Shown piece by piece: positions 53,243-56,476 of a stretch of 64,000 nucleotides of DNA; position 1 is the first letter of the stretch, and each line of letters begins with the position of its first letter. The translations under genes and the position numbers were made by a program. Under the pieces are notes generated by a model, which was given only the letters and a program-made list of their open reading frames with translations, was not told where the DNA came from and did not search any database. The stretch comes from Escherichia phage vB_EcoM-PM133: sequence record MZ234052.1. The stretch is one strand, 5' to 3'.

Positions 53243-53939
<697 letters not shown>

Positions 53940-53951
53940 TTTCACAAAGTT

Positions 53952-53990
53952 GTTTACATACTGATGAGGTAGTGATACTATTACCTCATC
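53952..53990 (+). promoter_or_regulatory. early-type promoter (GTTTAC, 18 bp, TACTAT) with 9-bp dyad arms flanking the -10
   Basis: GATGAGGTA gtgatactat TACCTCATC. Confidence 0.5.
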
Positions 53991-54011
53991 AAAATTAATT
54001 AGGAAAATAAA

Positions 54012-54302
54012 ATGAAAACATTTAAAGAATTTACTTCTACTACAACTACCCCGGTTTCTACCATTACCGAAGCTACTCTTACTTCTGAAGTTATTAAAGC
54101 AAATAAATGACGAGAAGGTAAACCAATGATTAGTCTGGTTGATGGCGAAGAAATCAAAGGTACTGTTTATCTAGGTGATGGGTGGTCTGCTAAAAAGGAT
54201 GGTGCTACAATCGTTATCTCTCCTGCTGAAGAAACTGCGTTGTTTAAAGCTAAACACATTTCTGCGGCACATCTCAAGATTATTGCTAAAAATCTTTTGT
54301 AA
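54012..54302 (+). CDS. ipI-position internal-protein-like gene split by an in-frame TGA
   Basis: 32 codons starting MKTFKEF, then TGA followed by C, then 58 further in-frame codons (second ATG at 54126 has its own AAGG SD). Confidence 0.5.
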
Positions 54303-54321
54303 TAAACAATTTCACAAAGTT

Positions 54322-54359
54322 GTTTACATAGGGTTTTAGTTGTGATACTATTACCCTAT
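54322..54359 (+). promoter_or_regulatory. early-type promoter copy with dyad arms (ATAGGGT / ACCCTAT)
   Basis: 23-nt upstream module aatttcacaaagttgtttacata identical to the copy at 53939. Confidence 0.5.
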
Positions 54360-54385
54360 CAAAACAAAACCAAATGGAAATCAAA

Positions 54386-54619
54386 ATGAAAACTTACCAA
54401 GAATTTATTGCTGAAACTGCTGATGTAAAAGTTGAGTTTATTTACACTGGCAAGAAAGATAAAATGGGTGAAATGCCTCATGGAGTTCTTCGTGATGCAT
54501 TAGATAATTTCGGTCAACTCGCCGCAGAAGATTACGGTGATAAAATTGTTGTTACTGGTCCTGCTGCAGTTATTGAAAAATGGGCAGCAGAAAATAAATC
54601 AATTTTTCGTAAAAAATAA
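54386..54619 (+). CDS. internal-protein-like gene with capsid-targeting leader MKTYQEFIAE
   Basis: 77 aa from the ATG that gives the MKTYQEFIAE N-terminus. Confidence 0.65.
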   Translation: MKTYQEFIAETADVKVEFIYTGKKDKMGEMPHGVLRDALDNFGQLAAEDYGDKIVVTGPAAVIEKWAAENKSIFRKK

Positions 54620-54658
54620 GTTTACTTTTAGATAGGGTAGTGATACTATTACCCTATC
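54620..54658 (+). promoter_or_regulatory. early-type promoter with 9-bp dyad arms (GATAGGGTA gtgatactat TACCCTATC)
   Basis: GTTTAC, 18 bp, TACTAT. Confidence 0.5.
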
Positions 54659-54677
54659 TACTACTGAGGAGAATAAA

Positions 54678-55648: not shown

Positions 55649-55721
55649 TGGGAATTAGCCAAGTTGGTAAGGCACTGGATTTTGATTCCAGGATGCAAAG
55701 GTTCGAGTCCTTTATTCCCAG
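55649..55721 (+). tRNA. tRNA-Gln (anticodon UUG)
   Basis: cloverleaf folded by hand: acceptor TGGGAAT/ATTCCCA, anticodon loop TTTTGAT, T-loop TTCGAGT. Confidence 0.85.
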
Positions 55722-55722
55722 C

Positions 55723-55809
55723 GCGAGAATGGCCAAATTGGTAAAGGCACAGCACTTAAAATGCTGCGGAATGATTTCCTTGTGGGTTCGAGTCCCACTT
55801 CTCGCACCA
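55723..55809 (+). tRNA. tRNA-Leu (anticodon UAA), long variable arm
   Basis: acceptor GCGAGAA/TTCTCGC, anticodon loop CTTAAAA, CCA encoded. Confidence 0.85.
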
Positions 55810-55814
55810 AATTT

Positions 55815-55888
<74 letters not shown>

Positions 55889-55898
55889 ATTTAATTTA

Positions 55899-55972
55899 CT
55901 CCGTGTAGCTCAGTTTGGTAGAGCGTCTGCTTTGGGAGCAGAATGTCGTAGGTTCAAATCCTGCCACGGAGA
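55899..55972 (+). tRNA. tRNA-Pro (anticodon UGG)
   Basis: acceptor CTCCGTG/CACGGAG, anticodon loop TTTGGGA. Confidence 0.85.
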
Positions 55973-55974
55973 CT

Positions 55975-56063
55975 GGAGGCGTGGCAGAGTGGTTTAATGC
56001 ACCGGTCTTGAAAACCGGCAGTCGCTCCGGCGACTCATAGGTTCAAATCCTATCGCCTCCGCC
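55975..56063 (+). tRNA. tRNA-Ser (anticodon UGA), long variable arm
   Basis: acceptor GGAGGCG/CGCCTCC, anticodon loop CTTGAAA. Confidence 0.85.
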
Positions 56064-56069
56064 AGTTTT

Positions 56070-56145
56070 GCTGATTTAGCTCAGTAGGTAGAGCAACTCA
56101 CTTGTAATGAGAAGGTCGGCGGTTCGATTCCGTCAATCAGCACCA
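56070..56145 (+). tRNA. tRNA-Thr (anticodon UGU)
   Basis: acceptor GCTGATT/AATCAGC, anticodon loop CTTGTAA. Confidence 0.85.
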
Positions 56146-56146
56146 A

Positions 56147-56221
56147 GGCCCTGTAGCTGGAAGGTTCAAGCAAGCGACTCATAATCGCCAGATGGTGGTT
56201 CAATTCCACCCAGGGCCACCA
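56147..56221 (+). tRNA. tRNA with CAU anticodon (Ile by analogy with T4, or Met)
   Basis: acceptor GGCCCTG/CAGGGCC, anticodon loop CTCATAA. Confidence 0.8.
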
Positions 56222-56230
56222 AATTAATTT

Positions 56231-56317
56231 GGGGAGTTATCCCGTAGAGGTAGCGGTGTGGACTGTAAATTCATTGTCATTGCGACTCGGGTGGTTCGAC
56301 TCCACCACTCCCCACCA
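56231..56317 (+). tRNA. tRNA-Tyr (anticodon GUA), type II with long variable arm
   Basis: acceptor GGGGAGT/ACTCCCC, anticodon loop CTGTAAA, T-loop TTCGACT, 3-bp variable-arm stem. Confidence 0.7.
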
Positions 56318-56321
56318 ATTT

Positions 56322-56396
56322 GGATGTGTAGCTCAATAGCAGAGCGATCGCCTGTTAAGCGATTGGTTATAGGTTCGAATCCTATCACGTCCGCCA
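56322..56396 (+). tRNA. tRNA-Asn (anticodon GUU)
   Basis: acceptor GGATGTG/CACGTCC (one G-U), anticodon stem ATCGC/GCGAT, loop CTGTTAA. Confidence 0.8.
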
Positions 56397-56400
56397 AATA

Positions 56401-56476
56401 CGAGGCATAGCTCAGAAGGAAGAGCAAGGACCTTCTAAGTCCTGGGTCGTAGGTTCGATCCCTACTGCCTCGACCA
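56401..56476 (+). tRNA. tRNA-Arg (anticodon UCU)
   Basis: acceptor CGAGGCA/TGCCTCG, anticodon loop CTTCTAA. Confidence 0.85.

Follow-up and report, generated by a model that had tools for sequence, protein, structure and literature searches.

The internal-protein locus at 54012-54302 of the window, the whole 64,000-nucleotide stretch of DNA analysed here, is very probably a young, predicted loss-of-function allele of the T4-type gene ipI that was created by an opal nonsense mutation, with low-level readthrough and internal reinitiation as by-products that carry no evidence of function. The gene, its function and null alleles of ipI are already known; only the existence of this particular allele, its annotation in GenBank as two hypothetical proteins and its carriage into bred phages that are therapeutic candidates are new.

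Identification of the interrupted ipI gene

An ATG at 54012 on the + strand, the strand of all features described here, starts a 32-codon ORF (MKTFKEFTSTTTTPVSTITEATLTSEVIKANK; 54012-54110 including its stop) that ends at a TGA (54108-54110) followed by a C at 54111. Past the TGA the frame is free of stops and runs through an ATG at 54126 to a TAA at 54300-54302, giving 32 + 63 = 95 sense codons in addition to the TGA; from the internal ATG to the TAA (54126-54302) it encodes 58 residues. All of these features, as well as the AAGG preceding the internal ATG, had been described in the original prediction and proved correct. In PHROG 4363 (internal virion protein), the 32-residue part corresponds to positions 1-30 (E 1.2e-8) and the 58-residue part to positions 37-92; the latter also aligns with positions 19-76 of the 76-position Pfam family IPI_T4 (PF11634, E 3.5e-40). 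Translated through the stop, the product aligns with mature IPI* (PDB 2JUB, residues 1-76; E 1e-44), its residues 21-96 being identical apart from the stop position and its C-terminal 58 residues showing 100% identity to 2JUB over the matching part. The 441 bases around the locus are 97.9% identical to T4, in which ipI is annotated there. Judged from these matches, the two ORFs are consecutive halves of one known protein and no chance pair, and the locus is T4 ipI itself; its earlier description as a gene in the ipI position was right about the place and too weak about the identity.

The window belongs to the genus Tequatrovirus and has the gene order gene 1 (dNMP kinase), 57A, 57B, the ipI locus, homologues of trna.4, trna.3 and trna.2, and ten tRNA genes; as in T4, the locus lies between 57B and trna.4, beside the tRNA cluster. 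The product of 57B (53481-53939) matches Pfam Acb1, an anti-CBASS nuclease (E 2.7e-60), and a known counter-defence gene directly adjoins the ip anti-restriction locus. The tRNA cluster (55649-56476) consists of Gln, Leu, Gly, Pro, Ser, Thr, Met (CAT), Tyr, Asn and Arg; the part of T4 used for comparison carries tRNAs for Gln, Leu, Gly, Pro, Ser, Thr and Ile.

Alignment to T4 and the start of mature 2JUB assign the leader or propeptide MKTFKEFTSTTTTPVSTITE to 54012-54071 (residues 1-20), with gp21 cleavage after ITE and before A; mature 2JUB begins with ATLTSE, at residue 21 of the product translated through the stop. Compared with T4 ipI, the allele occupies the same locus at about 98% DNA identity, shares the leader and the gp21 site and has an identical mature sequence bar the stop, and it differs by the TGA at Gly32 (T4 precursor numbering) and by one additional Thr codon in the leader, which is also found in G28, ECML-134 and RB27. 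The N-terminal fragment adds to the leader the 12 residues with which mature IPI* begins and stops at the opal codon, and the C-terminal fragment comprises residues 19-76 of IPI*, being devoid of the leader and of the first 18 residues of the mature protein. No uninterrupted ORF joins the leader to the mature domain at this locus, the TGA at 54108-54110 lying between them; because the ORF is split in this way, the locus represents a defective allele of the IPI_T4 family and no functional member of it. GenBank annotates two CDSs here; a single ipI pseudogene would be the proper annotation for the pair of 'hypothetical proteins' in MZ234018 and MZ234042.

The opal codon replaces an invariant glycine

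The TGA replaces a GGA through a single G-to-T change at 54108, and DNA alignments with T4, G28 and CM8 identify the lost residue as Gly32 of the T4 precursor, equivalent to Gly13 of IPI*. The closest intact allele is the 96-aa version of G28, ECML-134 and RB27; within the gene, the window differs from the G28 allele only by this G-to-T change and by a synonymous C-to-T change (TAC to TAT) at 54170. That just two changes separate it from its nearest intact relative indicates that the lesion is young, and for this reason the undamaged frame downstream tells little about selection. All five aligned intact alleles (T4, G28, CM8, RB69 and Bp7) have GGA, encoding Gly, at the TGA position. They span three genera, namely Tequatrovirus, Mosigvirus (RB69, 87% identity) and Dhakavirus (Bp7, 58% identity), and the glycine is invariant among them in the motif NKGREGKP. 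A GGA is likewise found in both JGI metagenome contigs matched by the flanking pattern; scans of IMG/VR by DNA pattern and by peptide pattern returned no ipI relatives, making that collection uninformative. A nonsense pseudogene was one of the readings offered in the original prediction, which had pointed to alignment with the ipI loci of related phages as a check; the invariant sense codon revealed by that alignment supports this reading.

Rarity of the TGA allele

A 61-mer with the stop at its centre is matched by 136 phage records, three of them (101117BS1, PM107 and PM108) carrying the TGA version and the other 133 being without it. Counted by exact sequence in a large protein collection, intact IPI variants are found on 395, 89, 43, 37, 36, 31, 29 and more contigs, and the 58-residue call on 4-8. 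The three TGA records all come from one study, that of Loose et al. 2021 (PMC8614997). Related phages with two separate genes and the same stop would, according to the original prediction, speak against an interrupted gene; the only such phages found are these three, which carry one allele by descent, and because they share it via laboratory breeding they show no conserved split. The presence of the TGA in 'two phage species' was also considered as a sign of persistence in nature and was rejected, since PM107 and PM108 are laboratory recombinants of 101117BS1.

A search with the exact 58-residue product returned further disrupted ipI alleles in metagenome assemblies. One of them, L005 (positions 2889-2996; ERZ28666444 scaffold_14), carries one extra base (a +1 insertion) in this very Gly codon, reading AAA GGG GCG A vs AAA GGA CGA, and in L006 and L008 the CCCC of the leader has gained an extra C (CCCCC); a further candidate, L009, was discarded as an N-gap artefact. 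The disruptions in L005, L006 and L008 may represent recurrent natural loss or assembly errors. They are kept only as a weak hint of recurrent loss, as all three are metagenome assemblies and a search by the exact 58-residue product detects only lesions upstream of Met39.

Transfer of the allele during phage breeding

The phage 101117BS1 is a wastewater isolate, and PM107 and PM108 are 'epsilon-squared' phages that emerged from 20 rounds of the Appelmans protocol with a breeding mixture of CHD16UKE1, G3G7, CHD94UKE2 and 101117BS1 (PMC8614997). Over 24 kb the window shares 99.9% identity with PM107 and, on the strength of this similarity, belongs to the laboratory-bred PM107-type group. Instead of ipI, CHD16UKE1, G3G7 and CHD94UKE2 carry in this slot an 85-aa Ip5-like internal-protein gene (PHROG 3499). 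Difference maps against the four breeding ancestors delimit a recombined ipI cassette with zero differences from 101117BS1, which extends at most over 53737-54328 (592 bp) and at least over 53795-54307. Outside the cassette the window follows the G3G7/CHD16UKE1 backbone, with a difference of ~2.4% from 101117BS1 elsewhere. The right-hand crossover (54308-54328) falls within a promoter and stem-loop repeat of the PeSL type. A second 101117BS1-like patch, a 12-nt indel at the 3' end of 57A, lies at 53458-53471; this patch and the ipI cassette together imply about four crossovers in 900 bp.

The presence of an identical 101117BS1-derived block in another backbone indicates that the TGA arose once and was moved by recombination, and given this single origin the phages that share it are not independent. 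We place this single origin in the wastewater isolate 101117BS1 or in a forerunner of it; homologous recombination then carried the TGA cassette (at most 592 bp) into the laboratory-bred PM107-type phages, where the cassette displaced the intact Ip5-like gene. The allele outlasted 20 breeding rounds on uropathogenic strains, and at least three of the progeny genomes have it in place of the intact gene. The Ip5-like gene persists in PM105 and PM123, siblings that were also bred, indicating that the ipI cassette was not uniformly selected. No selection for the cassette is evident, and hitchhiking explains both the persistence of the allele and the replacement, although a benefit to the phage is conceivable.

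Three copies of the PeSL-type element bracket each of the ip genes. The upstream copy (53934-53994), a member of repeat family D1 that was examined by a promoter scan and hairpin analysis, contains a promoter-like TTTACA-17-TACTAT at 53953-53981 and a stem-loop at 53962-53991 (-17.4 kcal/mol, z -6.9). The downstream copy (54304-54364), also of repeat D1, contains a promoter-like site at 54323-54351 and a hairpin with z -3.7, and the third copy is located at 54602-54662. With three copies at gene boundaries, promoters overlapping the hairpins and z values from -3.7 to -6.9, these cassettes have the features of PeSLs, and they fit the consensus TTTACW-N17-TAYWAT published for T4/PST (PMC4122927). 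The ip genes of the window are thus cassette-flanked in a manner comparable to the hyperplastic regions of T4-type phages, for which PeSL-mediated modular shuffling has been proposed (Arbiol et al. 2010; Comeau et al. 2014), and to the ip locus of T-even phages, which is polymorphic (Repoila et al. 1994); the right-hand crossover of the ipI cassette falls in the second of the three copies. Unlike in those systems, the swap took place in documented laboratory breeding and a defective gene replaced an intact Ip5-like one, making this a documented case of a promoter/stem-loop-bounded internal-protein cassette being swapped during Appelmans breeding.

Between ipI and trna.4 there is an additional internal-protein gene (54386-54619) that encodes 77 aa with the leader MKTYQEFIAE, matches PHROG 8111 (E 1e-52) and is absent from T4. 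The start given in GenBank (equivalent to 54374; 81 aa) lacks a match to the Shine-Dalgarno sequence. A likelier start is the ATG at 54386, which has its ribosome-binding site and leader repeat in common with ipI.

Predicted consequences for IPI production

The product of intact ipI is a precursor whose N-terminal leader steers it into the prohead; the gp21 protease cuts off the leader, and the resulting 76-residue IPI* is injected with the DNA. About 360 copies of IPI* are present per head (PMC9958956, PMC4437046); ipI is non-essential, and IPI is dispensable for head assembly (PMC9958956). IPI inhibits one specific GmrSD type IV restriction enzyme, that of E. coli CT596, and only this CT596 type (PMC12373910), and works as an injected protein that is on hand as the DNA enters (PMC12373910, PMC4437046). 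T4 mutants deficient in ipI are viable on ordinary hosts and are restricted about 10^6-fold by GmrSD, and wild-type T4 with its full IPI dose is still restricted 5-20-fold (PMC4437046). On hosts without the target GmrSD enzyme, ipI is dispensable. Like the T4 ipI mutants eG506 (a deletion), HA35 and KAI- of the Black laboratory, the window allele appears to be a null or defective allele of the same non-essential gene; those mutants were isolated in the laboratory, whereas the window allele derives from a wastewater isolate, is an opal nonsense mutation and lies at a different site.

In the mechanism that we propose, the G-to-T change from GGA to TGA, 12 residues into the mature domain, would leave a 32-residue leader peptide without cargo as the main product. 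Basal readthrough of the UGA, which in E. coli K-12 amounts to a few percent, would yield small quantities of the full-length precursor, most likely with Trp in place of Gly and recognizable by a junction peptide such as ANK-W-REGKPMISLVDGEEIK. Reinitiation at the existing Shine-Dalgarno sequence and the ATG at 54126 would give the 58-residue fragment, for which packaging and injection should be impossible because it has neither the leader nor the first 18 residues. Against a strictly null allele, some full-length protein is probably made owing to the UGA-C context.

Alternative explanations

Could the readthrough itself be functional? The UGA-C would then be read by tRNA-Trp or a near-cognate tRNA, and enough full-length IPI would be packaged for partial protection against GmrSD, possibly at a lower cost; we regard this as unlikely. 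The stop does stand in a UGA-C context, reportedly the weakest termination signal in E. coli (Poole et al. in 1995 and Major et al. in 1996 are said to have found this), the leader and the downstream frame are undamaged, and the TGA allele persisted through breeding. Readthrough of UGA reporters in E. coli K-12, via tRNA-Trp, amounts to about 2% at 37 C and 4% at 25 C (PMC10570021), and 2-4% of about 360 copies would correspond to roughly 7-15 copies of IPI per head. However, as wild-type T4 is restricted even at full dose, a 25-50-fold lower dose is unlikely to protect. The stop is also not conserved, the other relatives examined having GGA and the TGA records representing one allele by descent, and as the lost Gly does not vary within its conserved motif, a Trp in its place may itself be damaging. 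No opal-suppressor tRNA (anticodon UCA) is encoded among the ten tRNA genes of the window, the tRNA-Arg having a normal TCT, and RNA folding shows no structure near the stop beyond that of shuffled controls (z +0.64). Of the features that mark programmed readthrough, the weak context is thus present, and a conserved stop and a dedicated decoder or stimulatory structure are absent. The leaky context emphasized in the original prediction is real and would allow a basal few percent, with no sign of programming or selection. The arrangement is reminiscent of coat-to-A1 readthrough in Q-beta, where an in-frame UGA is likewise followed by an open frame and tRNA-Trp would decode the stop. In Q-beta the UGA is conserved and the extension is essential; the stop in the window, by contrast, is rare, derives from a sense codon and interrupts a single-domain protein.

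It is still less probable that the locus is a true split gene, in which the 58-residue part is made from an internal start and serves as an inhibitor within the infected cell without being packaged, and the 32-residue leader is a product of its own. A Shine-Dalgarno-like GAGAAGGT lies within the ipI coding sequence at 54112-54119, about 6-7 nt before the ATG at 54126 (its AAGG, at 54115-54118, is 7 nt before), and its anti-SD duplex of -6.2 kcal/mol, vs -4.2 at the native ipI start, ranks in the top 5% of + strand ATGs. This strong site and the position of the ATG 15 nt past the stop make reinitiation plausible; in addition, the 58-residue part spans positions 19-76 of Pfam IPI_T4, and the GenBank annotation has two CDSs. 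Yet the same Shine-Dalgarno sequence is present in the intact T4 and G28 alleles, and it and the ATG are ordinary R-E-G-K-P-M codons of intact close relatives, Bp7 having Val at the Met position; being unchanged in intact alleles, they have not evolved for a split gene. What stands of the split gene suggested in the original prediction is therefore a site suited to reinitiation, which intact alleles possess as well. The fragment moreover has no packaging leader, and the missing first 18 residues of IPI* presumably include the N-terminal helix that flanks the fold; the structure attributed to Rifat et al. (2008) reportedly consists of N- and C-terminal helices flanking two small sheets. Because IPI acts as an injected protein at DNA entry, its synthesis after injection would also come too late. 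The split is, finally, limited to one allele lineage.

An error of sequencing or assembly, the real phage having GGA, is scarcely credible. The TGA records do all come from one laboratory and one pipeline (MiSeq, SPAdes), but the same base is found in four separately assembled genomes, those of the window, 101117BS1, PM107 and PM108 (the window and PM107 differ at ~0.1% of sites), and the substitution lies outside any homopolymer run, which is atypical of Illumina error; the agreement of the four assemblies and the sequence context together make an error unlikely. We likewise consider it very improbable that phages gain on some hosts from losing IPI or making less of it, for instance where a defence senses injected IPI* or through a packaging cost. 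The candidate lesions in L005, L006 and L008 and the window TGA in environmental genomes would fit such an advantage as a weak hint, as would the replacement of the intact Ip5-like gene by a null ipI cassette in several bred phages with better virulence on uropathogenic E. coli. In a milder variant, UGA-C readthrough may hold the IPI dose deliberately low.

Significance

As a young null allele, by prediction, of a well-characterised and dispensable anti-restriction gene, the interrupted ipI is of small biological weight. The PM107-type phages were bred as candidates for the treatment of urinary tract infection; since they are predicted to be without IPI protection, hosts with a CT596-type GmrSD enzyme should restrict them.
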